A stretch of DNA of 64,000 nt from the IMG/VR virus record IMGVR_UViG_3300046615_000401, positions 14,998-78,997 of that record; one strand, 5' to 3'. How positions within the stretch are numbered: position 1 is the first letter of the stretch; each line of letters begins with the position of its first letter. The notes under the pieces are model-generated. The model was not told the DNA's origin. It did not search any database and saw nothing but the letters and a program-made list of their open reading frames with translations. This document shows, one piece after another, positions 1-18,947 of the stretch. The position numbers were made by a program, and so were the translations under genes. Origin of the DNA: a virus. Lineage: Duplodnaviria > Caudoviricetes.

Positions 1-592
1 CGCAGTACGGGCTTCGGACGCCAATGTGCAAGCACTCAAGGATGCCGAAGTCGAACGTAAAGACATCCGTGATGCCACCAAGCGCGCCAACGTGGTCCAG
101 AGTACCAAGCTGGCACTGAAGGAAGCCGGCAATCTGTACTCGGATGGCGTGTACAACGGCAGCCAGGCGCCTGATCTGATCAAAGAGATGGTCGCCTCGG
201 GTGTGGGTGACGACGCCAGTGAACGCCTGGCGATCTTGAAGCGCTTTGAAAAAGGCACGATGAAGATCAAGAGCCCCGATGGTAAAAGCGAAGTGGATGT
301 GCCTATCCCGCTGTCTGCCATGCGTGCTGCCATCCTGGGTTCCAAGGATCAAATCGTTAACTGGCGCAATCAAGGCTGGGCCAACGAAGCAGAAGCCAAC
401 TTGAAAAGTATTCTTCAATCAACCTACACCACGCAAGGGGCGAATGGTCAACAGGTTCTAGCCAACAAAGCAGCTGATGACTACTCGGCCTTCACTCAGA
501 CGCTGAAGAACGCGATCCAAGACCCGTTGATCAAGGGTGGTAATGGTAATCGGGGTACTGTACCACCGCCAACGATGCCAAAACGCCGATAA
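1..592 (+). CDS. C-terminal part of a virion structural protein upstream of vRNAP (N4 gp51-like position), 5'-truncated
   Basis: Frame is open from the window start to TAA at 590-592; same strand as and directly upstream of vRNAP, as in the N4 late operon. Confidence 0.7.
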   Translation, partial: AVRASDANVQALKDAEVERKDIRDATKRANVVQSTKLALKEAGNLYSDGVYNGSQAPDLIKEMVASGVGDDASERLAILKRFEKGTMKIKSPDGKSEVDVPIPLSAMRAAILGSKDQIVNWRNQGWANEAEANLKSILQSTYTTQGANGQQVLANKAADDYSAFTQTLKNAIQDPLIKGGNGNRGTVPPPTMPKRR

Positions 593-608
593 GCAGCTGT
601 TCTATGGC

Positions 609-646
609 AAAAAAGGTGGACTGGAGGAAACTTCGTCCACCTTTTT
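609..646. terminator. Intrinsic terminator-like hairpin, potentially bidirectional
   Basis: AAAAAAGGTGGAC...GTCCACCTTTTT stem with inner GGAG-GAAA-CTTC; followed by TATAAT at 650-655 upstream of the vRNAP start. Confidence 0.75.
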
Positions 647-683
647 CTATATAATCAAGACTTCCACTCCACCAGGATGCACC

Positions 684-3600
684 ATGGCCACTCTCGACCA
701 GATTCTTGACCAACACCTTGCTAAACAGAAGGAAGAAGCCGCTGGCGGCCTCAACCTGGACACCTACTTCGCTAACCGCTTCGGTGCCACAGCTGGTACG
801 GATAAAGTGGATGCTGTGCGGGCTGCAACCAAGGAAAAGGTGCAGAATCTGGAGTCCTTCCGGCAAGCACTGGCAATCAATCAGGAATCCAACCAGGCCG
901 CAGTAGAGGCCAACAAGCAAGCCTGGTCCACCCGTCTTGGCTTGGAAGCTGATGGTGTGGCCGGCACTGCAGTCAATCAAGCTGCCAGTCTGTACTCCGG
1001 TGGCTCACGTCTGCTGGGTAATGCAATTGCTCTGGCACCTAGTGCTACTGGTTTCGCCTATGAAGCTGTCATCCCCGAAGCAGAGAAGCAACTATACGGC
1101 CAGTACCAGATGTACAAGCGTACCAACACGGCCATCCCTCCGGAGATGGAAGCTGCCCTGAACCGCAAGGTATCCGGTGCCACTGAGGGTACCTCGCCGA
1201 CGGACGCTGCACGTTATCAAGCTGAAGCCGATGCCAATCCCGCCTCCCTGACCGTCAAGCAGGTCATGGAACGTACGGATTCCCTGCGTGGCATGGCCCG
1301 CAAGGTCAACGATTTCTTCGACAATTCCACTGCAGTGCAACAAGATCGGCGTGATGCCCTGTCCGCCGAGCTGGGCCAGGACTTCGCTGCTCGCTGGGGT
1401 AAAGTCACGCAAGGCTGGGACGAAGCCAAAAAGCACCAGTTCATGGCGGCCGGTGGCCACACGATCGAAGGAATCGCCGGTTTACTGCTGGGTGCCGGGG
1501 AAGCCGTGGTCAAGCATCCCATCGCCGCTACCGAGTACATCACTGAGAATGCTCCACAGATTGCGCTAGGCGCCTTGGGCCGGACCGGTATGGCCGCCAT
1601 GACATCCACCAATGTAGGCTATGCGGTAGATAACTACCAGCAAGGCATCGAGAACTACCAGAAAGCCCATCTAGGCCGTCTTCCAGCGGAGGATGTACGT
1701 CATACTATGGCCATTCAAGCGGCTTCATTGGCGGTGGCTGAGTATGTAGGTGAGTTGAACATCCTTCATGCTGGCAAGATGCTGGGTGGTGCTGAGAAAG
1801 CTACTGCTGAAGTAGCGGCTACCAGCGCAAAGCAATCCATCAAGAACACACTGGGTGCTGTTGCCCATGGTGGTATTGGTGAAGCAGCCACTGAGGGCTA
1901 TCAGACCTATATGGAGGGCCAAGTTACTGGCAAGCCAGCCAGTGCCGAGGACATCTACAAGGGTGCTGTCATCGGTGGTGTGGCGGGTGCCGGCCTGTCC
2001 GGAGGTCTGCATGGTATCCATGAAGCCTTGAAGGCAACGCCGGAACACGCTGCCCAACGTGCAGCCGAGGCTACCGACCATGCGACCTTCAACGCCGCGG
2101 CAGAAGCCAACGACCCGGCACCTTACCTGGATCCACAAAGTAAACAGTACGATCCCTCCGAAGCGGTAGGGGTATTGCTGAAACACGCCATGGGTGCGGA
2201 CGTGACGCCGGAAACCAAGCAGGCCAACCTGAAACAGGGGAGTGAGATCGTCGCCCAACTGGAAGAAGCACATGCCCAAGCACAGACGGTGGCAGCCACG
2301 CATACCCCGGAGGGTATCCAGGAAGCCAAGGACAATCTGGCTGCGGTACAGGAACAGCTGAAGACGGTCGATCCCACGGACAAAGCCAAGGTCACCCAGC
2401 TGAATTCACTGGTTTCGGATCTGACGGCCGAGGTAGCCGACCGCAGCGACAGCAAACAAGCCATGGCCGCTCGTACTGAGGCATCCAAACTGGAACGTCA
2501 GCTTAATACCGGTCGTGCTCGCCTTGAAGGGCTTACCACCATCGCTGAACCACAGGTTAAGCCAGCTGAAGTAGCTACTATGGTGGATGAAGCAGCCAAA
2601 CCAGAGGTAGCAGACCGGTTGATCAATCTGTCCATGACTCAACCGGATAGTATCACCGGTGAGCAGGCTACTAAGCTGGCAGAAGACAAGTCCAACACCT
2701 TCACCGATGAACAGCGTGCACACTTGCGCGCTTTCTCTGCTGCACGTATCGCTGAGAACCAGTTATCCACACAAAGCAAGGTATCTCAGGAAGTATTCTA
2801 CGGTTCGGCCAAGAATGTTGGCATGGCCCAGTACCGTGGCCGGATTGCTGCGGCAATTGCTGCCAATAACCAGAACACGGCGACGCGTCAGCTTGAACAG
2901 CTGCAGACCTTCGCCACCGACCACGCCAGCAAAGCTCAGGCTGCACGCCAAGCCATGCAGGGTGGCATGGGTAACCAGATCGTCAAGCTCACCAACGGCT
3001 CCGGCTGGACCGTGCTGCCCAAAGGGGAGAAGCTGGACAAGACCACCATGGATTCCAACGGCGCCCTGACCATGCAGTCCGGCCGGCTGGTGCAGGATAT
3101 CCAGAAGGAAGCCAAAGCCCTTGCCGCCACGGTGGCAGAGATGCAATCTGCTGTGAAGATTAAATTTGGCAACACGGTAAACCCTGTTGTACAATCCAAT
3201 CCTTCCGCAAAACAAACGACACTTCCCGGAAATATCAATAGCCCCAAGAATGAGGAGGAGTCCGCACGTCCAGAGCTTCGCCCTGAACCTCCTGCCGTCC
3301 GCACTCCTACTCTCTCCAGTAATAAGACGCAAACCAAGCAGACGTTTGAAGAACGTCAAGCTTTCAATGCCGCACAGGAAGAAATCGTGCGCAAAGCCAA
3401 CGCGGCTTACGCCGCCAAACAAGAAGCCAAGACAGCGAAGTCGGAAGCAGCGCAGCAACCAGCGGTGGTGAGCGCAGCGAACCCCGCGCCCGTTGCGGAG
3501 GCTGCGACGACTGAAGCGGGAGTAGAGAAGAAGGATAATATTTCTTCCCCTGCAGCCTCGCCAGCGTCGTCACCTGCCAGCCCTACGCTCGCTGACGCTC

Positions 3601-6600
3601 GCGGGGCTACGGTGCCTTCCTTGGCTTCGGCTGCGGCAACTGGTTTGAAGGTGTTTGAACAGGAACATGACAAGGCTGCCCCTTACACGGAACAGAACCT
3701 GATAGGTACCCAGTTCCAGCAGACTGCTGGCAGCGACACGGGTACGCTTCGTCCACTGGCTTCGGTGACGGATTTCCTGTCAGCCTTGAAAGCCAAGACC
3801 ACCAAGGTGTCGGACTTCGTCCAGCAAACCAGTGAACCGACTGCTGCACAACGTACCGTGCTGAAGGACTTCGCCCGTACTGCGGGTGACTGGTTTGCTA
3901 CCATCACCAGTAATCTGGTGCGTGGCAATAAGGGTTACGGCTATGAGGACATGATCCAGTTCCTGCTCAATGAGCAAGGGGATCTGGAGGAGAACACCAA
4001 GACAGCGATTGCTTATGCAGCCTACAGCTGGGTAGCAGAAGCGGCTTCCCGTCCATCGGAGAACAGCCCGGAAGAGATCAATCTGATTCTGGGTCGGGGT
4101 GAAGATGCCATTGTCAGCACCAAGGAAACCAACGCGCTGAAATATGTTGGTACCCGACAGAACGTGGTGGCCAACTCCCTGGGTCAACGGGTAGTCGCTG
4201 CGCTTGGCTTGAAGTCCTTGGCTTCCGCTCCGCGCAATCTACAGGCCGATCTGGAAGCATCGATCGGTGCCCACGCCATGAAGTTGCTGCTGGACCAAGG
4301 CATCCTGGTGCGTACCAGCATCAGTGGTAAGGAAATGGCGGAACTAACCGGTAAAGAATCCACTGACAGCAACGCCAAGTTCTACTTCCTCAAGCTGGCA
4401 CAAACGGACACCGGATTGCATCCGGCTGCCGAAGCCATCTACCAAGCCAGCAAGGGTACGCAGGGCATCCTCGACAAGCTGTTCGGGGTCGAACCAGCAT
4501 TGAAGGAACCGGGTACTGTACCGATCAAATCGACGCAGAAGACCACGCGCAATACCGACATGGCTATCCCCTCCGAGCTGGAAAAAATGGTGGCCAAGGA
4601 TGATGCCATCCCCAGCTTCGTGCGGGCTGACATGTACAACCTGGTGGGGCAGATCGATCCGGAGATCCTGCTGAAGATCGCCGGTAAGGAAGAAGTCACC
4701 GAAGACAGTGTGCACAAGGCTCGCCGCGCTTCGTTGCAAGCCAAGAACGATGGTCTACAACGGGAGTTGTCGCGCTTCATGGATTACGTCGGTCAGATGG
4801 GCCATGACGTGGCCATGTACTTCGAGCACTCTGTCTGGATGCAGCAGCGGGTGGGTATCGCCACCAACATGATCAATCCACAGACGTCGAAGATTCATCG
4901 GCACATGCTGTACCGGCAGAACTGGGAAACCAAGATCGCCATCAACGACGTCGATGTGATGACCAACTTCAAGCTGCGTGTCGCGGAAGGCTTGGGCGTC
5001 AAGACCGACAAGAAAAGCCAGGCCAAGGCACTCGCTGACCTTACTGGCTTACTGGCGAAGCCAGAGGTCAAAGGCGCCGTCAACGTGCTGGTCAAGTCCC
5101 TGGCCGGCACCAAGGATGGTACCTTGTCGGCCAATGAACAGCAGGTGCTGCTGGCTGGTGTCAAAGCCGGTGGCGAAGACATGCACTCGCTGGATGCGCT
5201 GATGGCACTGGCCCAGTTCACCCAAGCCAAGAAGGCAGGGGAGTCTCACTTCACCACGCAGATGATGGCCGAGGTGGATGGCGTCACCAACGGTCCGATG
5301 TTTACCAATCTGTTGCTGGGGGCGGCCAATACCGTGGGTGAGATGTACGCCTTGCTGAATCGGGGGGGTTTCTTCCAGCAAGGCAATCCGCACACCGAGT
5401 ACAACAACTGGCGGGATGCACCGGGCAACTTCGACCTGTATGAAAACACTGCCTTGCACATGACCCAGGCAGTCAATGCGGCTGGCTTCGATTCGGCCAC
5501 CATGGCTTCCTTGTACGCCTTCACCGGCGAGCTGGCAGACAAGAATGGGGCGGTGCAGAAAGCCGGCCGCAACATCATCAAGACGCCGTTGACGGCCATG
5601 GTGTTCGGCTCCTCGGTGAAGTCGGCGGTGGACAGTATGGCGGACAAGTTCATCGACAGCATCTACGCTGCCATCGAGGACAACGCCAAGGGAGCGAAAG
5701 GCGCCTTGAGCAGCACGGAGATCCTGGCCCATCTGGACATGCTGGGCGTGACTCTGCCAGCAGGAACCAACCTGATGGAGCATGAATTCAATGCTGCCCA
5801 GATCAAGACATTAAAAGGTATCTTCTCCGGTACATTGGGTAAGGCAGTCGAAGCCACCATGAAGCAGGACTTCGAGGTCTTCATCAGCCAGCGTACCCAG
5901 TTCAACCTGACGGCACAGACCACCTTCGCCGTGTACAACGCGGTGTACAGCAGCCTGCGCGAGAAGATGATCAACGATCTGATGGCGGAAGGCAAGCTGG
6001 CGGTCAACAAGACCACCGGCAAACCTATCCACGACCTGACCAATGCACAGGAAAAAGCCTTGCGCAAGCAGGTCGAAGCACTGGCACCGGTCATGCACTC
6101 GCCGATGTCCAAGGAATCTGGTGAGCTGAAAGCGGGTCTGCTGGTGGCCAAATCCGATCGAAAATTGTCCACCTCGCCGATCTACCAGAATACGGTGAAA
6201 TTTGGCCAGCCCTTCGCCGACAACGGCAGCAAGTCCACTGCTGTGCACGGCTACGAAGTCACGCCGACGGGTCCGGGTGTGGCCATGGTCCCGGTTAGCA
6301 TGCACTCGTCGGATAGTGCAGTATCGGCTCGTGCCAATCCAGACGGTAAAGCCCTCAACGTACACGATGCACAGGGTTCTGGTGTGGGTTCCATCCTGGC
6401 CACGGCGCAAGCCATGAACCAGGCTACCTGGGACACCATGCTGAATTATTCCCCTGCTGCGGAAGTGACAGCGGCTTTGCTGCGCACGGTACAAGGACTG
6501 GACGCCATGATACAGGCTGGCACTCTGCCGGACACGGCTCTGACCTTACTGGCTTCGTCCTTGGTGGACATGGCTGAAAAGCAGGGGATGTCGCCGGAGG

Positions 6601-9600
6601 GTGTGCTGCAAGTGCAAGCCATCCGCGCACAGGAGATGGCCTACAAGGCGGACAGCATGAAGCTGGATACCATGGCCACCATGCAGGCGATTAATCAATA
6701 TGCGATGGAAGGTGGTGCCTACGCTGTCACATCCGATAACCGGGCATCTGCGGCCTCGCTGCGCTCGGCACTGGCGCCCTCCTTATCGGCTGATGCCAGC
6801 GCGGCCCTGAACCGGGTCAGCGACAAGCTGGACGCTGCCATCAAAGCCGAGGTGGCCAAACGCGAAGGCAAGACTGTGGTGCCGGACACCGAGATGGATC
6901 CACAGGTGAAACCAGCCGGTAGTGTAGCCGAACTAGGTAAGTCGGCGATTGCCTCCGATCCCTTCCTGGTGGAGACGTTCAGCAAAACGCCTGTAATGGG
7001 CCTAGCAGAGGTCGCAGCCGCATTGCGTGTGTCGCTCAAGGGTGAGTTCAATCAACGCCTCCTGAGCGCTTTGGAGCGGGCTACGGGCTTTGACTTGACG
7101 GTGCGCTATGTCACGCCACAGACGGCACCGGCCGATCTGCTGGCCAAGGGGGATGACAAAGCCCGTGGCTGGTATGCCAGCAGCAATGGTGAGCAGGCGA
7201 TCTACGTGCTGTCACCAGAGTTCAAGTACTCCGGTTTGACCCCGGAACTGCTGCTGCATGAGCTGACCCATGCGGCCGTGGCCCGTACCATCGAGCAAGC
7301 CAAGATCGACGGCAAAGGGGATGCGTACGCACTGGTGAAGGAACTGGAAGAACTGCGTATGACGGCTGCCAAATATGTTGTGGCTAATCATTTACAAACC
7401 CAATTTAGTGCGGCAGTCGAGAACGTGCACGAACTGGTCAGCTGGGGGATGAGTAATCAGGAATTCCAGACCCAGGTGCTGGGTAAATTCCAGATGGCTT
7501 CGACTACCGGCAGCAATGCGCTGGTGTCGGGGATTAAGAGCTTCATTAACAAATTGGTGGGCTTGGTCTTTGGTAAGCAGAACGCTACCATGGCAACCGG
7601 GATGGGTGTGCTGATCTCTAATGTATCGGGGCTGTTCAATGCAGCAGCACAAACCAAAGACACGGCCAGCAAGGCTACGCTGGTGCTGAACCAGACCAAT
7701 ACGGGTGCAGCACAGAACAACCTGCGGGATCTGTCCACCATGGACATCCACAACGCCCTGGCACAGATGAACAGTGGCCAGGTAGTCAGCACCGGTTTCA
7801 GTGCCCACCTGCAGGATCTGCTGGGAGGGATTGTCACCAAGCTGCATGGTCCATTCGGTAGCTTCAAGGCTGCCATCATGGCGCAAACGGCCCAGACTCC
7901 GGAGCAGGTGTACCAGCATGCGCTGACTACCGGTGAAGCACCGTTCGCACTCGATGCTTTGGGGGCAGGTTTTGCCTTCACCCATCAGGAAGCCTTCGCT
8001 GCCGAGCAGGTCCAGGTCACGGTGCGCGAAGCAGTCAACGGCAAGGATGGCGTAACGTCGGTGGCCTATCGGGAACTGGCCAAGCTGTACGACGAAGTGC
8101 GCAGCAAGATCAAGGTGTCCGACTTCCATGGTGCGAATGTGTCGCCAGTGGAGATCGCTGAAGCCCAGGCGCTACATGACTTCATCTTCACGGTGAAGCT
8201 CGATGCCGACGGCAAGAGCGAATACCTGTCGCGCTTCGCTGCACTGGGCCTGGCCCATGAAGGCTTCAACACGGTGCTCGCTTCCATGGTGTCACGTAAT
8301 GCCAATGCCGCTTCGGCCATCAGCTTCAACGATCGGCTCAACAAGATCTTCGAGCAGATCCTGAACTGGTTCGCCGGCAAGATGACGCACACCAAAGAAG
8401 GCATGACGGCCGAAACCAAGCTGACCAAGCTGGTGGAACAGCTGGTGCAGATCGAAGTCAAGAAACGCATGGTGGTGCAGGCACGTATCCAGCTGTTGAC
8501 ACCAATCGAGGAAGCGGTGGATACGCTGGCCAAAGGTGCCCGTGCCAAGCTGGATGCTTTTGTCCGCCAGCCTTACTTCAAGCAGCATACGAATGGCTTT
8601 GTACGCGGTGGTACAGCCCTTCTGTCGGCCTATGCGAATGAGCGCACGGATGCGGTGTTGGAAGGTTTCATGCGCCTGCGCGATCAAACCATCGGAGGTC
8701 AGCTGGGGATTGCTGCCTCGCTCGTCAATGAGTTCCGCGGCTCCAATACCAGCAACCTGATCTTCCATTACCTGCTGCGCATCACCAAGCATATTGAAGG
8801 TACCCGCAAGGACATCATCACCGGTACTGGCAAGATCGTGCTGGGCTCCTTCGCCAATGAGGGGGATGACCTGAACGCGCAGCACAAGGATGCCATCAGT
8901 GCAGTGTTCCTGCGGACTGACATGAGCAGTCTGCTGACCCACTACAACATGGATGAGCTGGCTAAGCTGGTGGGGGATCCACAGGCAGTGCAGACGGAGA
9001 TCAATCGCTTTGAAGCCAACCTGACCAGCAAATTCCGTCGCTACTATGTGAATGCAGCCAAGACCCTAGCCTACTACAAAGCCACTGGCGAAGTGCGCAG
9101 TGCCCATCTGGTGATGAATGCCGGGAACATCGCTCGCTTGTACGGTACCGGCTACAAGACCCAGGTGAGTGAAGCCGAAGCCAAGCAGGCCGAGAAGATC
9201 ATTGATCCCTTGGTTTCCTTGTATGCGCTGCTTTACTCCCGTGAGGATCACCTGAGTAAAGCCCAGGAAGTATTGAAGGCGGAAGCTGCACGCACGGATG
9301 GTGGCAACGGTGTGGAGATGGTACTGAAGACCCATCAACGCCTGGTCGAACAGTCGCAGAAGCTGCTGTTCGATGATGCTGCACCACTGCACATGAAAGG
9401 CTACACCACCGAGATCTACGATCCCTTCATGGATGTGGTCACGGCCGGCGTGGATGAAGGTGCCGATCTGGTCCTGCAGGGTTACACCCAAGGTTCGGCA
9501 CTGAGCCATGATGTGGCCGATCCCCTGGCCGAGGAAAAGCACATCTACTACCTGCGCGATGGTGGCATGCAGCGTCGTGTCACGGGTACGCTAAGCTTCA

Positions 9601-11204
9601 CCGGCATGAAGGCCAAGGGTACCCGTGTGCACAACGGCAATGTCTCGCCGCTGTCCTACTCTGGTCAGCTGAATGCCTCCAACATGGCGGCCATCGGTAA
9701 CAACAAGCAGGCAGCCATCCAGGACATGTTCACTGCCACTGGTTTCGATCCGTCGAGTGTCAAGCAGAATCATCTGGCACCGGTGCTGAATGCCAACGGC
9801 GATGTGGTCAACTACCGTTACCTGATGAGCGAGTTGACCAAGGACACTTTGCTGGACCGGGACAACCGGCCGGAGAAAATCCTGGGCGCCATGGCGGGTT
9901 CCGTCTTCGACAAGGTCAGCTCCAAGGAGCAGAACCGCAAGGTGGTGGAAGCGCTGCATGAGCAATACACCTACGAGTTCGCCAGCAATCCTGCTGCCTA
10001 CCTGACCGTGGGACCGAAGAGTACTGATCCGCAGCTGAGAGAAATCTGGCAGCTGCTGCCGGCCTCCACCAAGCAGGCGGTCAATGAGATCTGGGGTACC
10101 GAGGGTATGAAGGTGCGCAGCGATCTGCTGGACATCAACTTCGGTTACCGCAAGGTGAGTGTGGCCGATGCCTTCACCGAGCAGGCTGCACAACGCAACT
10201 TCGTGCAGGGCATGTTCGTGGAATTCATGACCATGGCTTTCCATGAGAAAGCGCAGCTGCGCACCCGGCAAGTGGAGGATATCTGGCAGGCCGTGGTGAA
10301 AGCCACCAAGGGCAACCTGGTGGTGAAATCCTGGTCCACCATGAGCGGCAACCTGCGTTCCAACTGGTCGCAGCTGTTGTTGATGGGTGTTAATCCGGTG
10401 GCCATCGCCCGTAGTCACCGGGTAGCCTTCAAGGGTGCCTGGGCCTACAAGAAGGATAGCGAACTGCTGTTCAACCTACAGCACCAGATTGAGGTGGGGC
10501 ATATCCTGCCAGGACAAACCAAGGCGGACATTGAACACCAGATTAAACGCCTGCAGGACAGCATCAACCGCAATCCGGTCAAGCCGCTAATCGATGCTGG
10601 CTTGATGCCGACCATCGTGGAGGATGTGGCAGCTGATGACGACATCTATTCGTACAAGTCGAAGTTCGTCAAGGGCACTGAGAAGTTCACCAGCAAGCTC
10701 AACCCACAGGTGGTAGGACTAGGTAAGTTCTTGCTGATGACGGAAGACAGTTCAGCCTTCAAGGTGATGAGCTACGCCACGCAGATCTCCGACTTCCTGG
10801 CCCGCTACACGCTGTACGAGCACATGACCAGCAAGAAGAATCCGATGGACCATGAGGATGCGATTCAACTGGCCTCGGATGCCTTCATCAACTACGACGT
10901 CCCGACACACCGGATGGTCCAGTATGCTAATGATTCGGGGTTGGTGATGTTTACCAAGTACTACATGCGCATCCAGAAGATGCTGGGTAAGATCTACAAG
11001 GAACACCCTGGCCGGGTAATTGCGTTGCTGGCTGCTGAACGGATGATCGGGGATCAGCCGACAGTGATCGATTCGGGGATGCTGCATCGCTGGGGCAACC
11101 CGCTGAACCTGGGCGCCCTGGACTATCCTGGCTCACTGGATTCCTTGACCACGGTGAAGCTGCTCAGTAGTCCCTTCCGCGGAGGTGGTAACCCAGCGGA
11201 TTAA
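684..11204 (+). CDS. Virion-encapsidated RNA polymerase (N4 gp50-like), ~3506 aa
   Basis: Size; motif A EVDGVTNG, motif B RNIIKTPLTAMVFG, motif C NVHDA, NPQTSKIHR; no Cys from the Met at 684; start reassigned from 537 to 684 (AGGA upstream). Confidence 0.97.
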   Translation: MATLDQILDQHLAKQKEEAAGGLNLDTYFANRFGATAGTDKVDAVRAATKEKVQNLESFRQALAINQESNQAAVEANKQAWSTRLGLEADGVAGTAVNQAASLYSGGSRLLGNAIALAPSATGFAYEAVIPEAEKQLYGQYQMYKRTNTAIPPEMEAALNRKVSGATEGTSPTDAARYQAEADANPASLTVKQVMERTDSLRGMARKVNDFFDNSTAVQQDRRDALSAELGQDFAARWGKVTQGWDEAKKHQFMAAGGHTIEGIAGLLLGAGEAVVKHPIAATEYITENAPQIALGALGRTGMAAMTSTNVGYAVDNYQQGIENYQKAHLGRLPAEDVRHTMAIQAASLAVAEYVGELNILHAGKMLGGAEKATAEVAATSAKQSIKNTLGAVAHGGIGEAATEGYQTYMEGQVTGKPASAEDIYKGAVIGGVAGAGLSGGLHGIHEALKATPEHAAQRAAEATDHATFNAAAEANDPAPYLDPQSKQYDPSEAVGVLLKHAMGADVTPETKQANLKQGSEIVAQLEEAHAQAQTVAATHTPEGIQEAKDNLAAVQEQLKTVDPTDKAKVTQLNSLVSDLTAEVADRSDSKQAMAARTEASKLERQLNTGRARLEGLTTIAEPQVKPAEVATMVDEAAKPEVADRLINLSMTQPDSITGEQATKLAEDKSNTFTDEQRAHLRAFSAARIAENQLSTQSKVSQEVFYGSAKNVGMAQYRGRIAAAIAANNQNTATRQLEQLQTFATDHASKAQAARQAMQGGMGNQIVKLTNGSGWTVLPKGEKLDKTTMDSNGALTMQSGRLVQDIQKEAKALAATVAEMQSAVKIKFGNTVNPVVQSNPSAKQTTLPGNINSPKNEEESARPELRPEPPAVRTPTLSSNKTQTKQTFEERQAFNAAQEEIVRKANAAYAAKQEAKTAKSEAAQQPAVVSAANPAPVAEAATTEAGVEKKDNISSPAASPASSPASPTLADARGATVPSLASAAATGLKVFEQEHDKAAPYTEQNLIGTQFQQTAGSDTGTLRPLASVTDFLSALKAKTTKVSDFVQQTSEPTAAQRTVLKDFARTAGDWFATITSNLVRGNKGYGYEDMIQFLLNEQGDLEENTKTAIAYAAYSWVAEAASRPSENSPEEINLILGRGEDAIVSTKETNALKYVGTRQNVVANSLGQRVVAALGLKSLASAPRNLQADLEASIGAHAMKLLLDQGILVRTSISGKEMAELTGKESTDSNAKFYFLKLAQTDTGLHPAAEAIYQASKGTQGILDKLFGVEPALKEPGTVPIKSTQKTTRNTDMAIPSELEKMVAKDDAIPSFVRADMYNLVGQIDPEILLKIAGKEEVTEDSVHKARRASLQAKNDGLQRELSRFMDYVGQMGHDVAMYFEHSVWMQQRVGIATNMINPQTSKIHRHMLYRQNWETKIAINDVDVMTNFKLRVAEGLGVKTDKKSQAKALADLTGLLAKPEVKGAVNVLVKSLAGTKDGTLSANEQQVLLAGVKAGGEDMHSLDALMALAQFTQAKKAGESHFTTQMMAEVDGVTNGPMFTNLLLGAANTVGEMYALLNRGGFFQQGNPHTEYNNWRDAPGNFDLYENTALHMTQAVNAAGFDSATMASLYAFTGELADKNGAVQKAGRNIIKTPLTAMVFGSSVKSAVDSMADKFIDSIYAAIEDNAKGAKGALSSTEILAHLDMLGVTLPAGTNLMEHEFNAAQIKTLKGIFSGTLGKAVEATMKQDFEVFISQRTQFNLTAQTTFAVYNAVYSSLREKMINDLMAEGKLAVNKTTGKPIHDLTNAQEKALRKQVEALAPVMHSPMSKESGELKAGLLVAKSDRKLSTSPIYQNTVKFGQPFADNGSKSTAVHGYEVTPTGPGVAMVPVSMHSSDSAVSARANPDGKALNVHDAQGSGVGSILATAQAMNQATWDTMLNYSPAAEVTAALLRTVQGLDAMIQAGTLPDTALTLLASSLVDMAEKQGMSPEGVLQVQAIRAQEMAYKADSMKLDTMATMQAINQYAMEGGAYAVTSDNRASAASLRSALAPSLSADASAALNRVSDKLDAAIKAEVAKREGKTVVPDTEMDPQVKPAGSVAELGKSAIASDPFLVETFSKTPVMGLAEVAAALRVSLKGEFNQRLLSALERATGFDLTVRYVTPQTAPADLLAKGDDKARGWYASSNGEQAIYVLSPEFKYSGLTPELLLHELTHAAVARTIEQAKIDGKGDAYALVKELEELRMTAAKYVVANHLQTQFSAAVENVHELVSWGMSNQEFQTQVLGKFQMASTTGSNALVSGIKSFINKLVGLVFGKQNATMATGMGVLISNVSGLFNAAAQTKDTASKATLVLNQTNTGAAQNNLRDLSTMDIHNALAQMNSGQVVSTGFSAHLQDLLGGIVTKLHGPFGSFKAAIMAQTAQTPEQVYQHALTTGEAPFALDALGAGFAFTHQEAFAAEQVQVTVREAVNGKDGVTSVAYRELAKLYDEVRSKIKVSDFHGANVSPVEIAEAQALHDFIFTVKLDADGKSEYLSRFAALGLAHEGFNTVLASMVSRNANAASAISFNDRLNKIFEQILNWFAGKMTHTKEGMTAETKLTKLVEQLVQIEVKKRMVVQARIQLLTPIEEAVDTLAKGARAKLDAFVRQPYFKQHTNGFVRGGTALLSAYANERTDAVLEGFMRLRDQTIGGQLGIAASLVNEFRGSNTSNLIFHYLLRITKHIEGTRKDIITGTGKIVLGSFANEGDDLNAQHKDAISAVFLRTDMSSLLTHYNMDELAKLVGDPQAVQTEINRFEANLTSKFRRYYVNAAKTLAYYKATGEVRSAHLVMNAGNIARLYGTGYKTQVSEAEAKQAEKIIDPLVSLYALLYSREDHLSKAQEVLKAEAARTDGGNGVEMVLKTHQRLVEQSQKLLFDDAAPLHMKGYTTEIYDPFMDVVTAGVDEGADLVLQGYTQGSALSHDVADPLAEEKHIYYLRDGGMQRRVTGTLSFTGMKAKGTRVHNGNVSPLSYSGQLNASNMAAIGNNKQAAIQDMFTATGFDPSSVKQNHLAPVLNANGDVVNYRYLMSELTKDTLLDRDNRPEKILGAMAGSVFDKVSSKEQNRKVVEALHEQYTYEFASNPAAYLTVGPKSTDPQLREIWQLLPASTKQAVNEIWGTEGMKVRSDLLDINFGYRKVSVADAFTEQAAQRNFVQGMFVEFMTMAFHEKAQLRTRQVEDIWQAVVKATKGNLVVKSWSTMSGNLRSNWSQLLLMGVNPVAIARSHRVAFKGAWAYKKDSELLFNLQHQIEVGHILPGQTKADIEHQIKRLQDSINRNPVKPLIDAGLMPTIVEDVAADDDIYSYKSKFVKGTEKFTSKLNPQVVGLGKFLLMTEDSSAFKVMSYATQISDFLARYTLYEHMTSKKNPMDHEDAIQLASDAFINYDVPTHRMVQYANDSGLVMFTKYYMRIQKMLGKIYKEHPGRVIALLAAERMIGDQPTVIDSGMLHRWGNPLNLGALDYPGSLDSLTTVKLLSSPFRGGGNPAD

Positions 11205-12638: not shown

Positions 12639-13250
12639 TTAAGCTGCTTGCCTGAACTGCATCAGGTGCAGGGTTTGTTTAAAGCTGTTGGTACGCAGGC
12701 CGGCATAGATGGCAGCGGTGGCATCGGCCATGTGTTCGGCCTTGGCAGCGCTGACCTGCTCCTTGCCGTTGTTCTTGAACATGGGCCAGTTGGCTTCGGG
12801 GTGTCGCCCCATGGCCCATTCAATCATCTCCAGCTTGGTGGCAGTCTTCTTGCCGACACTGACCATCTTCACTTCGGATGGCGTCACCTCGAAGAACGGA
12901 ATGCCCGTGGCACGTAATGCCCCCAGCACGCCCACACAGATGCCATACGAGGCCATCGCACGGGCAGACTGGCTGCCTACCGGAACCTCAACGAAAATCG
13001 CCTGGGCGCCCTGTGCGTGGGCCAGGGCTGCCTCACACAATTGATACGCCGCTTCCAGATCCTCGCTGTTCTGCCTTACCTGCTTCCCGGTAGGCAGTAC
13101 CGGTTGGATCACCGCCACCTCGTTGATCACCAAGGTGGCGTCAGCCAGGGTGTGACCCAAGGTGAGAATACCCTTGGAGACACCCCAGTTGCGCAGTGAT
13201 GGATCGAAACCCACCACCTTGAAGCCAGCCAGGTCAGCCTGGTGCATCAT
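12639..13250 (-). CDS. ruvC: RuvC-like Holliday junction resolvase
   Basis: VVGFDPSLRNWG, VEVP, EHMADA acidic catalytic motifs; start approximate. Confidence 0.85.
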   Translation of the reverse strand: MMHQADLAGFKVVGFDPSLRNWGVSKGILTLGHTLADATLVINEVAVIQPVLPTGKQVRQNSEDLEAAYQLCEAALAHAQGAQAIFVEVPVGSQSARAMASYGICVGVLGALRATGIPFFEVTPSEVKMVSVGKKTATKLEMIEWAMGRHPEANWPMFKNNGKEQVSAAKAEHMADATAAIYAGLRTNSFKQTLHLMQFRQAA

Positions 13251-13581
13251 CGCCGGGTGCTGCTTCGATGCTGGCGCCAAACGGCAGATCCTTGAACAGG
13301 TTCAGCACGGTCATGACACCGACACGGAACACCTGCAGGTAGGCACCGTTCAGGTCCATGGCAATGACTTCACCTGGCTTGGCTTCGTCTTCCACCTCTA
13401 TGGTGGTACCTTCTTGAAACTCCAGCAGGCGGTTGCCATGTTCCATCTTCTCGGCATGCCAGTGATCCACCAGCATGGCAAAGGCGTCGATATCAACAAT
13501 GGGGGTGGCACCGACGGGCACGGCTTCCTTGAAGATGGCTTGACCAGCCAGCTCAGGATTCAGGACGGCGATTTCAGCCAT
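13234..13581 (-). CDS. N4 gp46-like hypothetical protein
   Basis: AAGGAG RBS; lies between ssb and the resolvase; LVDHWH...FKDLPF pattern. Confidence 0.7.
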   Translation of the reverse strand: MAEIAVLNPELAGQAIFKEAVPVGATPIVDIDAFAMLVDHWHAEKMEHGNRLLEFQEGTTIEVEDEAKPGEVIAMDLNGAYLQVFRVGVMTVLNLFKDLPFGASIEAAPGDDAPG

Positions 13582-13897
13582 GGTTCAGCTCCTTGTATAG
13601 AGCGTAGCCTTCCAGCTCCCACAGCTTGGCGGTGGCCTTGTTTTCGGCGTCTTCCTTGCCGATACGAATACCCGTAGCCGCGATGAAGTTGTCCTTATCC
13701 ACGCAGGCACTGAAGCCAGTGGCCAACAGAAAGGCATCGTCCAGGTAGGCATGTACAAAGGTGCTGGTGGTGCCTTCCGGTACGTGCACCTTGTAGGTGA
13801 CACGGTGCATCAGCGCTTCGATGTCTTCACGCATGACACGGCGGCCGGTCTTGCCAGCTGCGGCCAGTTCCTGGCTGGTGATGTCCGGCTTATCCAT
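13574..13897 (-). CDS. Phage gp49/gp66 family protein (candidate Acb4-like anti-CBASS sponge), 107 aa
   Basis: TGFSACVDKDNF...GIRIG...KLWELEGY motif; GGAGG RBS before the Met at 13897. Confidence 0.8.
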   Translation of the reverse strand: MDKPDITSQELAAAGKTGRRVMREDIEALMHRVTYKVHVPEGTTSTFVHAYLDDAFLLATGFSACVDKDNFIAATGIRIGKEDAENKATAKLWELEGYALYKELNHG

Positions 13898-14060
13898 TGA
13901 CCACCTCCGGCTTGGCCGACAGGAAGACGTAGAACATCTGCGCCGCATTTATTACAGTCGAGGGATGGTTGTTACCGCCCACTTGGTTGCGTACAGCCAT
14001 ATCGAGTGCCATGGCACGCATGTTCAGGTCATGCCCACCATCATTTTCATTTTCACCCAT
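13890..14060 (-). CDS. 56-aa hypothetical protein (not in ORF track)
   Basis: MGENENDGGHDLNMRAMALDMAVRNQVGGNNHPSTVINAAQMFYVFLSAKPEVVNG; stop overlaps the next start. Confidence 0.55.
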   Translation of the reverse strand: MGENENDGGHDLNMRAMALDMAVRNQVGGNNHPSTVINAAQMFYVFLSAKPEVVNG

Positions 14061-14891: not shown

Positions 14892-15006
14892 GGTACATTT
14901 CCTTTTGTAAGGGTTGGTTATGTTGTTGGGTACAGCAAAGTGAAGCGCTGCTCAACTCAATTGTGTTCTACCGGATTGAGCAGTGTAATACAGAACAGTA
15001 CGACCT

Positions 15007-15744: not shown

Positions 15745-15766
15745 TTACATCTCCATAGAAAAATAA

Positions 15767-15791
15767 GGGTTGGCTTTATCCAAGCCAACCC
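15767..15791 (-). terminator. Intrinsic terminator-like hairpin
   Basis: 10-bp stem GGGTTGGCTT/AAGCCAACCC followed on the minus strand by TTATTTTT. Confidence 0.7.
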
Positions 15792-15802
15792 CTGCCAGAT
15801 TG

Positions 15803-15830: not shown

Positions 15831-16256
15831 TTAGAATGCCTTGATACGTTCGGCCAGCACGGAACTGTACATGTGCATGGCACTGTATTGAGAACGTAAA
15901 CGACGTTGTTCGTCAGTAGCCAAGCCAGTGAAGATAGGTGTGTCTACAAACTTCAGCAGAGCAAGCATTTTGGTGTCCAGCTCGGCTTTCTCATCCACCA
16001 CCCGTTGCTGGTGTGGCTGCAGCGTGGATGCTGGAATTTCCCGGTAGGTCTTCTCGAACTGCTCAGCCGGCGACCAGCTGATGTAGCCGGTATGAGCCGG
16101 ATGGTTAGGTAGTCCGCCGTCGGTGTACTCCACCAAGTAGCCAGGCGTGTCTTTGTCCTGTCCTTCCGGTGTCAACCAGCCCTGATAGTTGTTGTACTGT
16201 CCGCGGGTCATAGGCATGGCCAGCAGAGTCTTGGTACCGATGTAGCGTTTCATCAT
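15831..16256 (-). CDS. Two-domain protein: YISWSP-motif domain + crAss001_48/Sequestin-like helical domain
   Basis: N-terminal KRYIGTK..GYLVEY.DG...YISWSP..F..Y; C-terminal PHQQRVVDEKAELD...Q...M..YS.VL.ERI..F. Confidence 0.75.
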   Translation of the reverse strand: MMKRYIGTKTLLAMPMTRGQYNNYQGWLTPEGQDKDTPGYLVEYTDGGLPNHPAHTGYISWSPAEQFEKTYREIPASTLQPHQQRVVDEKAELDTKMLALLKFVDTPIFTGLATDEQRRLRSQYSAMHMYSSVLAERIKAF

Positions 16257-16267
16257 GATGCGACCTT

Positions 16268-16726
16268 TCAGTTGTCGAAGAAGAACACGATGCGCTGTTC
16301 TTCCAGGTTGGGATTGTCGGTCTTGGGTAAGCCGTCGATCAGCCTGGTCAAGCGTGGCAGCAGTTCCCTTGCATCGAGATCCGGACTGACCAGCATCTGC
16401 ATGGCCTTTTCCTTCAACTCCTGCACGGTCAGGTGATTGTGGCTATGTGCATCATCTTCCCAGCGCTCGAAGATGGCAGCTACTTCCGGCGACAGGTCTT
16501 CTGCCATACCGTGATTCGGCAGGCCAAAAGGACACTCGTAGCGTACTTCACCATTGGTGAGCAGACCAAACAAACCATAGTCCCGGCCACGGTAGGAATA
16601 CGTGATGTCAGCGTATTCACCATCATCGATTTCTGCTTGGGTAGGTGTGGTCAGTGTGTGCAGCAAATCTGCCACCCAGACACCCTCTTTCTTGGTTTCC
16701 GACCACAGATGGATATCACAGCCCAT
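16268..16726 (-). CDS. Conserved phage hypothetical protein (MGCDIH...RxYxLFxxL...VR...HSH...RIVFFFDN family)
   Basis: Recognisable motif set; AAGGAG RBS. Confidence 0.75.
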   Translation of the reverse strand: MGCDIHLWSETKKEGVWVADLLHTLTTPTQAEIDDGEYADITYSYRGRDYGLFGLLTNGEVRYECPFGLPNHGMAEDLSPEVAAIFERWEDDAHSHNHLTVQELKEKAMQMLVSPDLDARELLPRLTRLIDGLPKTDNPNLEEQRIVFFFDN

Positions 16727-16769: not shown

Positions 16770-18947
16770 TTAAGGGAGTTTGGCGATTGCCTTGGTGACG
16801 CTGACCATGATGGTGCTCATGATCTCCATCTCGTCCAGCTTGTCGGCGATACGCTCGTTCAAGTGCAGCACCTTCTGCCGGATCGGCTCGAACTGGAAGC
16901 CGGCATCAACCAGGATCATGGCGAAGCGCAGCAGCATGTTGTTGCGGTTGCCGTCGCCGATGTTGTTCATCACCCAGCGCTCCAAGTTGTCCAAGCCCTG
17001 CTGGTCCTGCAACAACGCTTTGCGCTCCTCGTTCTTACTGGTTTTCGGGATGAACGGCAGCACATCCAGGATGTCACCTTCGTTGTACTCGTAGATGCTG
17101 GGCATGCCTTCGTTGTTCTGGGCACAGCTCATCCACTTACGCGCACGCTGTCCGGTACCATCATCGACCGAGAACGGCAGCCACTCGTAGATGTTGGCCA
17201 TGAACTCTTTAAAGTCCTTCGCGTCCAGCTGCAACTCGTAGCTGATTGGCAGGATCAGGCGGAAGCGTTCTTCCCCATTGGCTTCCGCCGTCTGGTGCCG
17301 CTTGGTGGTGTAGATCAGATACTTGTACGACGCCATCAACGTCTTCACCGTGCTGAGAGGAATACCCCCATCGACATCGATCACCACCAGATTGAAGCCA
17401 GGGATGGCATTGTCTTCGTTACGATAGCCACCGGCCACATGGTGCGACAGCCAGTGCATAGAGGGATGATTGGTCAGCTTGTGCAGCTGGTCAAACGGTG
17501 CCCGCTCATTGGCATAGTCGGTGGTGATGTCAGTGCTGTACGCCACGATCATCGAGTCCAGCCGGCTGGCTTTGAGCGTCTCCCCGCGCAGGAATTCAAT
17601 CCCATCCGAGAACGACTTCTTGATGATGATGTTGTTGCGATAGCCCCACGCTGTGGCCAGCGACAGCATCTCGGTCTTCTGGCTTGCGGCACCGCGGTAG
17701 AACGGCAGATCTTCCACCAGATCGGCTTGGGTGCAATCACGTCGCACCGAGCCCAGATACTTGGCCAGTTTGATGTAAGTGCGGTCCCGTGTCAGCAGCT
17801 TGTCGAAGGCTGCACCAGATTCCTCGGCCAGCTTGATGGCGTTGTACAGATGCTCCGACGTCAGCTCCGGGGAGTCGTCGATAAAGGCGTAGGCGCCAGC
17901 CAACTTGAGGGCTTTGAAATAGCGGTGGGAGATCTCGGCTTTCTTGATCTCTTCGTGCTCCGGCAGCTCATGGGCGATCTTCTCGCATTTGAGCTTGTAC
18001 TCGATCAGCAGCAGCGAGGTATCTTTGGTCAGCACTAGGCGCTTGTTGACGTTGACGATGTCAGCCAGCTGATCCAGCTTGTCCGCCAGGTCTTCCATCC
18101 AGACGTTGCTGGACTTATCCGTCAACATGTCATACACCTGTTCTGGCGTCAGCTCCTTCTTGATGTCAGAAGCTTTGCTGTAGCCGAAGAAGCAGCGCCG
18201 GGCATAGCCGGTTTCCAGCATCGAGTACAGTTCTTCTTCCACCTTGCTGCCGTTAAGCAGCTTGGCCGGCGTCCCGAACAGCATCATGTTGGTCGGCGTT
18301 TGACCAGGGATTTCCTCATTACGCTTGTTATCGGACGTGTTCTTGATCAGCTTGGTTTTGATCTTGCCGACGTCGTACAATTCCAGGTAGGTGTTGAGTA
18401 CTTCCACACTGGACAGTAGATTGCTGCCGATCTCATCGATCTGCAGGTTGACCGAACCAGCATCTGCCATCAGCAACTTGTGACGCATTTGCTTAATAGC
18501 AGCAGGGGTGCCGGAGTCGAAGCTGAATACCAAGGTACCCAGCTCATCGAATTCCTTCTGCACACGCACCAGTTCTTCTTCCGGATCGACGCTCTTGCGG
18601 GCAGCACGCTTCACCGCCAGCTTGGGCAGGTTCTGCTCGGCCAGGATGGTAAACGTCTCCTCCAGAAAACGGGCACGGAAGCGACCAATCACATCGTTTT
18701 CAATGATGTTGGTTGAGAAGCCTTTGCCCGATCCGGAGGTGCCCAGATTCAGCGCGTACATATTGACCGGAATTTCTCCTCGATCATGGGTAACGATGGT
18801 GGTGCGCATCATCGACGCCACCATGCTGAAGTAGTACCCCACCAGCACGCGGAAGAACAATGGATTATCGTTCTGGGTCTTGTTGCACAGGATCTCCACC
18901 AGCCTCTCCGCGGTGGGATGGAACTGCATTTCCTCATTGGTTTTCAT
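16770..18947 (-). CDS. DNA primase (N4 gp43-like)
   Basis: SGSGKG P-loop-like N-terminal region; VIDVDGG, YTTKRH, RFRLILP AEP-type motifs; GDGNRNNML PriCT-like tail. Confidence 0.9.
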   Translation of the reverse strand: MKTNEEMQFHPTAERLVEILCNKTQNDNPLFFRVLVGYYFSMVASMMRTTIVTHDRGEIPVNMYALNLGTSGSGKGFSTNIIENDVIGRFRARFLEETFTILAEQNLPKLAVKRAARKSVDPEEELVRVQKEFDELGTLVFSFDSGTPAAIKQMRHKLLMADAGSVNLQIDEIGSNLLSSVEVLNTYLELYDVGKIKTKLIKNTSDNKRNEEIPGQTPTNMMLFGTPAKLLNGSKVEEELYSMLETGYARRCFFGYSKASDIKKELTPEQVYDMLTDKSSNVWMEDLADKLDQLADIVNVNKRLVLTKDTSLLLIEYKLKCEKIAHELPEHEEIKKAEISHRYFKALKLAGAYAFIDDSPELTSEHLYNAIKLAEESGAAFDKLLTRDRTYIKLAKYLGSVRRDCTQADLVEDLPFYRGAASQKTEMLSLATAWGYRNNIIIKKSFSDGIEFLRGETLKASRLDSMIVAYSTDITTDYANERAPFDQLHKLTNHPSMHWLSHHVAGGYRNEDNAIPGFNLVVIDVDGGIPLSTVKTLMASYKYLIYTTKRHQTAEANGEERFRLILPISYELQLDAKDFKEFMANIYEWLPFSVDDGTGQRARKWMSCAQNNEGMPSIYEYNEGDILDVLPFIPKTSKNEERKALLQDQQGLDNLERWVMNNIGDGNRNNMLLRFAMILVDAGFQFEPIRQKVLHLNERIADKLDEMEIMSTIMVSVTKAIAKLP

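Follow-up and report, generated by a model that had tools for sequence, protein, structure and literature searches.

The gene described here occupies positions 15831..16256, on the minus strand, of the window, a stretch of 64,000 nucleotides covering positions 14,998 to 78,997 of the IMG/VR record IMGVR_UViG_3300046615_000401, which is a complete virus genome of 78,997 bp with direct terminal repeats. Judging from its virion RNA polymerase ORF of 3555 aa (537..11204) and a primase ~59% identical to those of Litunavirus phages, the phage is N4-like. The gene is an ORF of 141 codons plus stop, opening with two consecutive ATG codons. An AAGG ribosome-binding motif, read from the sequence, lies 7 nt upstream of the first of them (16264..16267, minus strand), and the preceding ORF, of 152 aa, ends 11 nt upstream of the start (stop codon at 16268-16270). 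An intrinsic-terminator-like hairpin of 12 pairs followed by a T-run, recognised by consensus scan as a pattern match only, is found 38 nt past the stop of the 141-aa ORF (15765..15793, minus strand). From the ribosome-binding motif, the stop spacing and this hairpin, the gene would close a minus-strand unit formed by the primase (16770..18947), the 152-aa ORF and the gene itself.

The whole ORF matched phrog_32732 over its full length (E 1.7e-27), and ~55 clusters of full-length homologs were recovered, with 41-61% identity to the protein and PF21825 present in all of them. The same fusion is carried by culturable phages such as Pseudomonas phage Arace01 and Klebsiella phage cp20. AlphaFold2 (AF2) modelled the protein with a mean pLDDT of 95.4, placing a beta module of five strands ahead of a hairpin of two helices. 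The first part, hereafter the N-module (residues 1-74; 16035..16256, minus strand), carries the signature YIGTK ... GYLVEY.DGG.PN ... YISWSP..FE..Y. It is joined by a six-residue linker (residues 75-80; 16017..16034, minus strand), modelled between strand 72-74 and helix 81-104 with no regular secondary structure, to a Sequestin domain (PF21825; residues 81-141; 15834..16016, minus strand). The motifs quoted in the earlier note were all located in the translation, with KRYIGTK, GYLVEY.DG and YISWSP..FE..Y in residues 1-75, and PHQQRVVDEKAELD ... ERIKAF in residues 78-141. A genome-wide domain search returned a single N-module, a single Sequestin domain (64.6 bits in that search) and no Tad2.

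The 152-aa ORF (16268-16726, minus strand) directly follows the primase, which is the slot held by RyR Tad in Pectobacterium phage vB_PatP_CB1 (hereafter CB1). Its product starts with MGCDIH and matches phrog_10141, to which no function is assigned; in the ESM Atlas it falls among large clusters that contain viral proteins only and have no Pfam assignment, and its predicted structure is at pTM 0.80. It is possibly a further cargo gene of the region.

Anti-signalling genes around the locus

In N4-like phages, an anti-signalling hotspot has been described between the primase and the virion RNA polymerase genes (bioRxiv 10.64898/2026.06.04.730250). The studied gene lies in the corresponding region of the window. 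In that region, a minus-strand gene (13574..13948) belongs to the Acb4 family (PF13876, 46.7 bits for a cut-off of 27, E 4.6e-12), with 29% identity (E 6e-7) to the Acb4 half of gp59 from Pseudomonas phage vB_PaeP_C2-10_Ab09 (hereafter Ab09). A second minus-strand gene (12639..13280), RuvC-like (phrog_159, E 1.3e-42), is an ortholog of Ab09 gp60 (44% identity over 192 aa, E 1.7e-54), which is Bes1, for 'broad evasion of signaling 1', with a function described in the same study (bioRxiv 10.64898/2026.06.04.730250); it is also 46% identical to CB1 gp74. SSB and Sak4 genes are interspersed in the region, and BLAST revealed no counterpart of Bes2 (Ab09 gp61) among the neighbouring genes. With its Acb4 gene and Bes1 ortholog, the region is laid out like the N4-type hotspot as published. 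This agrees with the earlier note, which had expected an "anti-signalling kit" here on the basis of a nearby gp49-like gene, now placed in the Acb4 family.

Between the RuvC-like and Acb4 genes, a 115-aa ORF (13234-13581, minus strand) overlaps both at its ends and weakly matches a 'Mu Gam-like end protection' PHROG (E 7.8e-6); CB1 gp73 bears the same Mu Gam-like annotation and also lies between the SSB and the RuvC-like genes.

Related phages assemble comparable parts differently. Ab09, the primase of which is 59% identical, encodes in the same hotspot the Acb4-Sequestin fusion gp59, with a C-terminal Sequestin domain that holds the same pocket residues, and its Bes1 gene follows, as here. 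However, Sequestin is fused to Acb4 in Ab09, whereas here Acb4 is a separate gene and Sequestin is joined to the N-module, in a gene located across the Sak4 and SSB genes relative to the position of gp59. In the N4-like Klebsiella phage vB_KpnP_PW7, a 164-aa protein combines an N-terminal N-module, with all invariant residues, and a Tad2 domain, while Sequestin is a separate adjacent gene of 67 aa, unlike the fused Sequestin of our phage. The adjoining genes for Acb4 (140 aa), N-module-Tad2 (164 aa) and Sequestin (67 aa) of that phage (L005:1906-3189) sit beside the virion RNA polymerase gene and are annotated merely as hypothetical proteins. Finally, the N4-like Pseudomonas phage inbricus encodes a 232-aa triple fusion, N-module-Acb4-Sequestin, keeping all invariant residues of the N-module.

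The C-terminal Sequestin domain

Residues 81-139 matched Pfam PF21825, named Sequestin in Pfam 38.1 and formerly crAss001_48 related, with 63.1 bits for a cut-off of 24.8 (E 2.3e-17), covering positions 2-60 of the 61 of the profile. Phage T4 Y16Q, whose sequence was located in the T4 record, aligns to residues 81-141 with no gap, at 36% identity (E 7e-11). All four pocket residues are kept: R85, E89, Q123 and R137 correspond to T4 R7, E11, Q45 and R59, with a spacing identical to that of the family (R, then E at +4, Q at +38 and R at +52), and the same four residues align in the crystallised Sequestin domain of Ab09 gp59. The hairpin helices (81-104 and 114-140) were modelled with a pLDDT of 92-98 per ten-residue block. 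Sequence searches against a copy of the PDB that does not hold the gp68 and gp59 crystals gave no match for the whole protein and only chance coiled-coil matches for the full profile.

PF21825 proteins have been reported to bind and sequester 3'cADPR, cancelling type I Thoeris defence; their protomers pair antiparallel, with the pockets at the dimer interface, the pocket E, Q and R are required for anti-Thoeris activity, and T4 Y16Q is an active member of the family (Tal et al., bioRxiv 10.1101/2025.07.12.664507). The function of the family was also shown for Ab09 gp59 (bioRxiv 10.64898/2026.06.04.730250). By homology, the C-terminal half is a new member of this known anti-Thoeris sponge family, in line with the earlier note, which had seen in it a resemblance to helical proteins of the crAss001_48/T4 Y16Q type and hence to Sequestin. 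It is predicted from the same homology to act as a 3'cADPR sponge: two hairpins would pair antiparallel, as in characterised members, and the type I Thoeris signal 3'cADPR (1''-3' gcADPR) would be trapped in two interface pockets formed by R85, E89, Q123 and R137, leaving ThsA never activated.

The profile match, the two-helix hairpin and the four pocket residues are thus shared with the characterised Sequestins (SequestinA/B, T4 Y16Q). These are stand-alone proteins of 60-80 aa or are fused to Tad2 or Acb4, and the N-module-Sequestin architecture is absent from Tal et al. (bioRxiv 10.1101/2025.07.12.664507).

The front module: family, fold and relation to RyR Tad

Neither Pfam nor NCBIfam holds a model for residues 1-75, and NCBIfam was empty for all five proteins tried; the same residues matched phrog_872 and phrog_9467. 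Searching residues 1-77 with phmmer against 1.84 billion representatives recovered 1433 homologs at E<=1e-3, each a cluster at 50% identity, of which 723 at E<=1e-10. The best 150 matches share 53-66% identity with the query, save one outlier at 43%. A word-index search with the 77-aa module returned zero candidates, which reflects the sensitivity limit of that tool. A 1731-aa match with 27 short matched stretches (P0129) was set aside.

A Pfam scan of the best 149 of the 1433 relatives identified a Tad2-like partner in 45, Sequestin in 37, Acb4 in 12, an Acb2/Tad1 hairpin in 4 and a WDGH domain in 1, so that the frequent fusion of the YISWSP module to Tad2/DUF2829 and other sponge domains, proposed in the earlier note, is borne out. 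A separate domain parsing of 222 N-module proteins resolved their architectures: the N-module was followed by Sequestin in 83, by Tad2 in 49, by a partner with no assigned family in 44, by Acb4 in 8 and by Tad2 then Sequestin in 5; it stood alone in 11, and the remainder showed other domain orders. The 44 partners with no family were mostly singletons, and clustering them yielded no new partner family. The module occupied the N-terminus in 196 of 224 proteins. Altogether, Tad2, Sequestin, Acb4, the Acb2/Tad1 hairpin and RyR domains are found attached to it, and this kind of multi-partner fusion signature is what led to the discovery of Sequestin (bioRxiv 10.1101/2025.07.12.664507). The WDGH fusion is a 181-aa protein (P0198; PF25311, E 1.9e-43), and its WDGH domain may be another counter-defence candidate.

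The N-module also occurs as a gene of its own. Erwinia phage phiEaP8 carries it as a stand-alone 78-aa gene beside the virion RNA polymerase gene, with every invariant residue kept and no sponge gene or domain within 2.5 kb. Another stand-alone copy was found on a 66-kb metagenomic phage contig, and the ESM Atlas holds stand-alone clusters of 67-95 aa with 58-114 members each. These stand-alone copies retain the conserved loop residues described below. On one further contig (L010), a 94-aa ORF (1275-1559) has the appearance of a stand-alone module and was not counted, since a Sequestin-like fragment (~1612-1800, E 1.3e-6) follows in another frame, pointing to a fusion gene broken by a frameshift or to a fault in the assembly.

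Modelled alone, the N-module reached a pLDDT of 95.0, with strands 3-6, 10-15, 39-44 and 58-63 and helices 18-25 and 64-70, the fifth strand (72-74) appearing in the full-length model. Foldseek gave no match in the PDB at E<=1e-3, nor did a search by sequence with the N-module profile in the PDB copy mentioned above. A Tad2 fold was considered and rejected: SPO1 Tad2, the best Foldseek match, was non-significant (E 0.83, TM 0.34-0.39), PF11195 had no Pfam match at E<=0.1 and an hhalign probability of 0.1%, Tad2 was absent from the top 50 of VIA-align, and in N-module/Tad2 fusion proteins the Tad2 domain comes after the N-module. An assignment to Acb4 (PF13876) was likewise discarded, with no Pfam match and an hhalign probability of 0.2%; hhalign found no relation between the N-module and the Tad2, Acb4 and Sequestin profiles. 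A wide VIA-align search ranked DUF1653 first (3be3, Z 5.1), with CarD, Mfd-RID and Tudor domains at Z 4.0-4.6. Values of Z <8 being common for unrelated small barrels, homology to these domains was rejected and the likeness was read as that of a generic small SH3/Tudor-like barrel.

Conservation over a set of 108 sequences reaches >=90% at ~25 of the 74 positions. Many of these residues are polar or aromatic and lie in two loops, Y21-N22-..-R25-G26-W27-..-P30-..-E33 and D46-G47-G48-..-N51-..-G57. The net charge of the module is about neutral. The studied copy departs from the consensus at only two conserved positions, with Q25 and Q33 (window positions 16182-16184 and 16158-16160, minus strand) in place of R25 and E33. 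Among 222 relatives, the pair at positions 25/33 is R/E in 199, Q/Q in 8, Q/E in 4, R/Q in 0 and another combination in 11; Q33 is thus seen solely together with Q25. This covariation suggests that R25 and E33 are in direct contact, within the module or across a dimer interface, and Q25/Q33 looks like a tolerated state of a coupled contact pair. On a FastTree phylogeny of 70 residues, which is poorly resolved, the partner type changes 91 times, compared to 113 in shuffles (shuffle minimum 102), a weak indication that the N-module is not adapted to one partner.

Sequence and structure both connect the N-module with RyR Tad, the product of CB1 gene gp68. BLASTP aligned residues 4-69 of gp68 with residues 2-74 of the studied protein (32% identity, E 2e-5), the N-module family HMM matched gp68 residues 5-65 (30.3 bits, E 1.6e-11), and a Foldseek search of BFVD with the N-module model retrieved a RyR-domain protein of Yersinia phage TG1 (E 1.3e-4, TM 0.74). 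The AF2 monomer has five strands, the same number as in the description of the gp68_N crystal, and gp68_N keeps the core motifs GYLV.Y and Y.SWSP..F. By these comparisons, the N-terminal half and the N-domain of RyR Tad are homologs, a new link: our literature search found no paper connecting the sponge-associated N-module to gp68_N, nor any characterising it beyond the RyR Tad preprint. The studied protein and gp68 each consist of two domains, the C-terminal one being a gcADPR sponge (predicted for the studied protein), and each is encoded between the primase and Sak4 genes of an N4-like phage; the sponge is a RyR Repeat12-like domain in gp68 and Sequestin here.

In the gp68 crystal, the N-domain swaps its first strand with the partner protomer, completing a five-stranded sheet, and this strand-swapped dimer contributes to dimerisation; gp68 residues 1-86 alone had no apparent activity against type I Thoeris, the only defence system against which gp68_N was assayed, while gp68_C alone sufficed (bioRxiv 10.64898/2026.06.04.730250). 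However, gp68_N does not possess the YRGW and DGG.PNH loops, which hold about half of the residues invariant in the studied subfamily. These loop residues are thus dispensable for the fold and for the gp68 swap, and the negative assay of a copy devoid of them does not settle the function of the module.

Possible roles of the front module

We see at least an even chance that the product of this gene is a counter-defence protein of two modules, in which the N-module is an autonomous immune-evasion unit with a second target. In this reading, and by analogy with RyR Tad, the N-module would self-associate by swapping its first beta strand, and the antiparallel Sequestin dimer would place its two N-termini at opposite ends. 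Given this arrangement and the six-residue linker, we infer that pairing of N-modules would join Sequestin dimers into tetramers or chains. The autonomy of the module is suggested by its stand-alone copies, its conserved polar and aromatic loops, its switching between partners and its fusions to several sponge families. It would act through a putative loop face, comprising Y21, N22, R/Q25, W27, E/Q33, E43, Y44, D46, G47, G48 and N51, on a small molecule or a protein. More specifically, the YIGTK/YISWSP module may be an undescribed immune-evasion module with its own target, acting as a sponge for a messenger that its partners do not cover, binding a defence protein or guarding against systems that sense sponges, a proposal that we make tentatively and with some doubt. 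The guard role, against systems such as Panoptes, is speculation; it would explain why the module accompanies every sponge family. Several observations count against an autonomous unit. The inactivity of gp68_N against type I Thoeris is one, and the generic barrel, for which no known nucleotide-binding fold was found, is another; the neutral charge contrasts with the positively charged pockets used to predict sponges, the N-terminal bias (196/224) would also fit a mere tag, and the studied copy has Q25/Q33, which looks tolerated, where 90% of the family has R25/E33.

Part of this evidence fits another reading, possible but rather unlikely in our view, according to which the protein neutralises one messenger only and the N-module is purely structural, either forming dimers or oligomers by strand swap or stabilising the hairpin, and thereby raising the avidity or solubility of Sequestin. 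The homologous domain of RyR Tad is a strand-swapped dimer, inactive alone, next to a C-domain active alone; the N-terminal position fits the need for a free first strand, no ligand-binding relative of the small barrel is known, and the coupled change from R25/E33 to Q25/Q33 looks like a structural contact. Yet it would be hard to see why a pure scaffold should be maintained as an abundant gene of its own that keeps all invariant residues, and about half of these residues lie in the two loops that gp68_N lacks, in a protein assayed against one defence system only.

The earlier note had gone further, proposing that the N-terminal half neutralises a second messenger, that of CBASS, so that one polypeptide would sequester both 3'cADPR and a cyclic oligonucleotide. 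We consider this improbable. It would fit the fusions of the module to CBASS sponges (Acb4 in 12 and the Acb2/Tad1 hairpin in 4 of the best 149 relatives), and the fusion of sponge to sponge is a documented strategy (bioRxiv 10.1101/2025.07.12.664507). However, the commonest partners in that set are the Thoeris sponges Tad2 (45/149) and Sequestin (37/149), and the phage already has a separate Acb4 gene. The comparison with known sponges did not uphold the proposal either: by profile the module resembles none of Tad2, Acb4 and Sequestin, no solved sponge structure matched it significantly, and its sole studied homolog, gp68_N, gave the negative Thoeris result described above.

Least probable of all is a regulatory or host-protein-binding Tudor/CarD-like domain, serving the autoregulation of anti-defence genes, as do the AcrIIA1 N-terminal domain and Aca proteins, or the binding of RNA polymerase: a constant N-terminal module with variable C-terminal cargo does resemble regulator-to-effector fusions, but the likeness to the CarD N-domain, the RNA-polymerase-interacting domain of Mfd and Tudor lies in the Z range common for unrelated small barrels, and a module that is not basic, with conserved acidic E33, E43 and D46, does not suggest nucleic-acid binding.

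While the Sequestin half is just a further member of a family known since 2025, the studied protein owes its interest to the front module. With 1433 clusters, this module ranks with the most frequent domains that lack a name in phage counter-defence genes; Pfam has no entry for it, its literature amounts to one sentence ("fold with unknown function"), and the link to the crystallised N-domain of gp68 provides a structural starting point. If it proves to be a strand-swap clamp only, it would reveal how multivalent sponge assemblies are put together by phages. If instead it has a target of its own, a new family of immune antagonists would be defined by it and a recurrent gene architecture would be accounted for; the studied protein would be truly bifunctional, and hundreds of stand-alone phage genes of 67-95 aa would gain a function.
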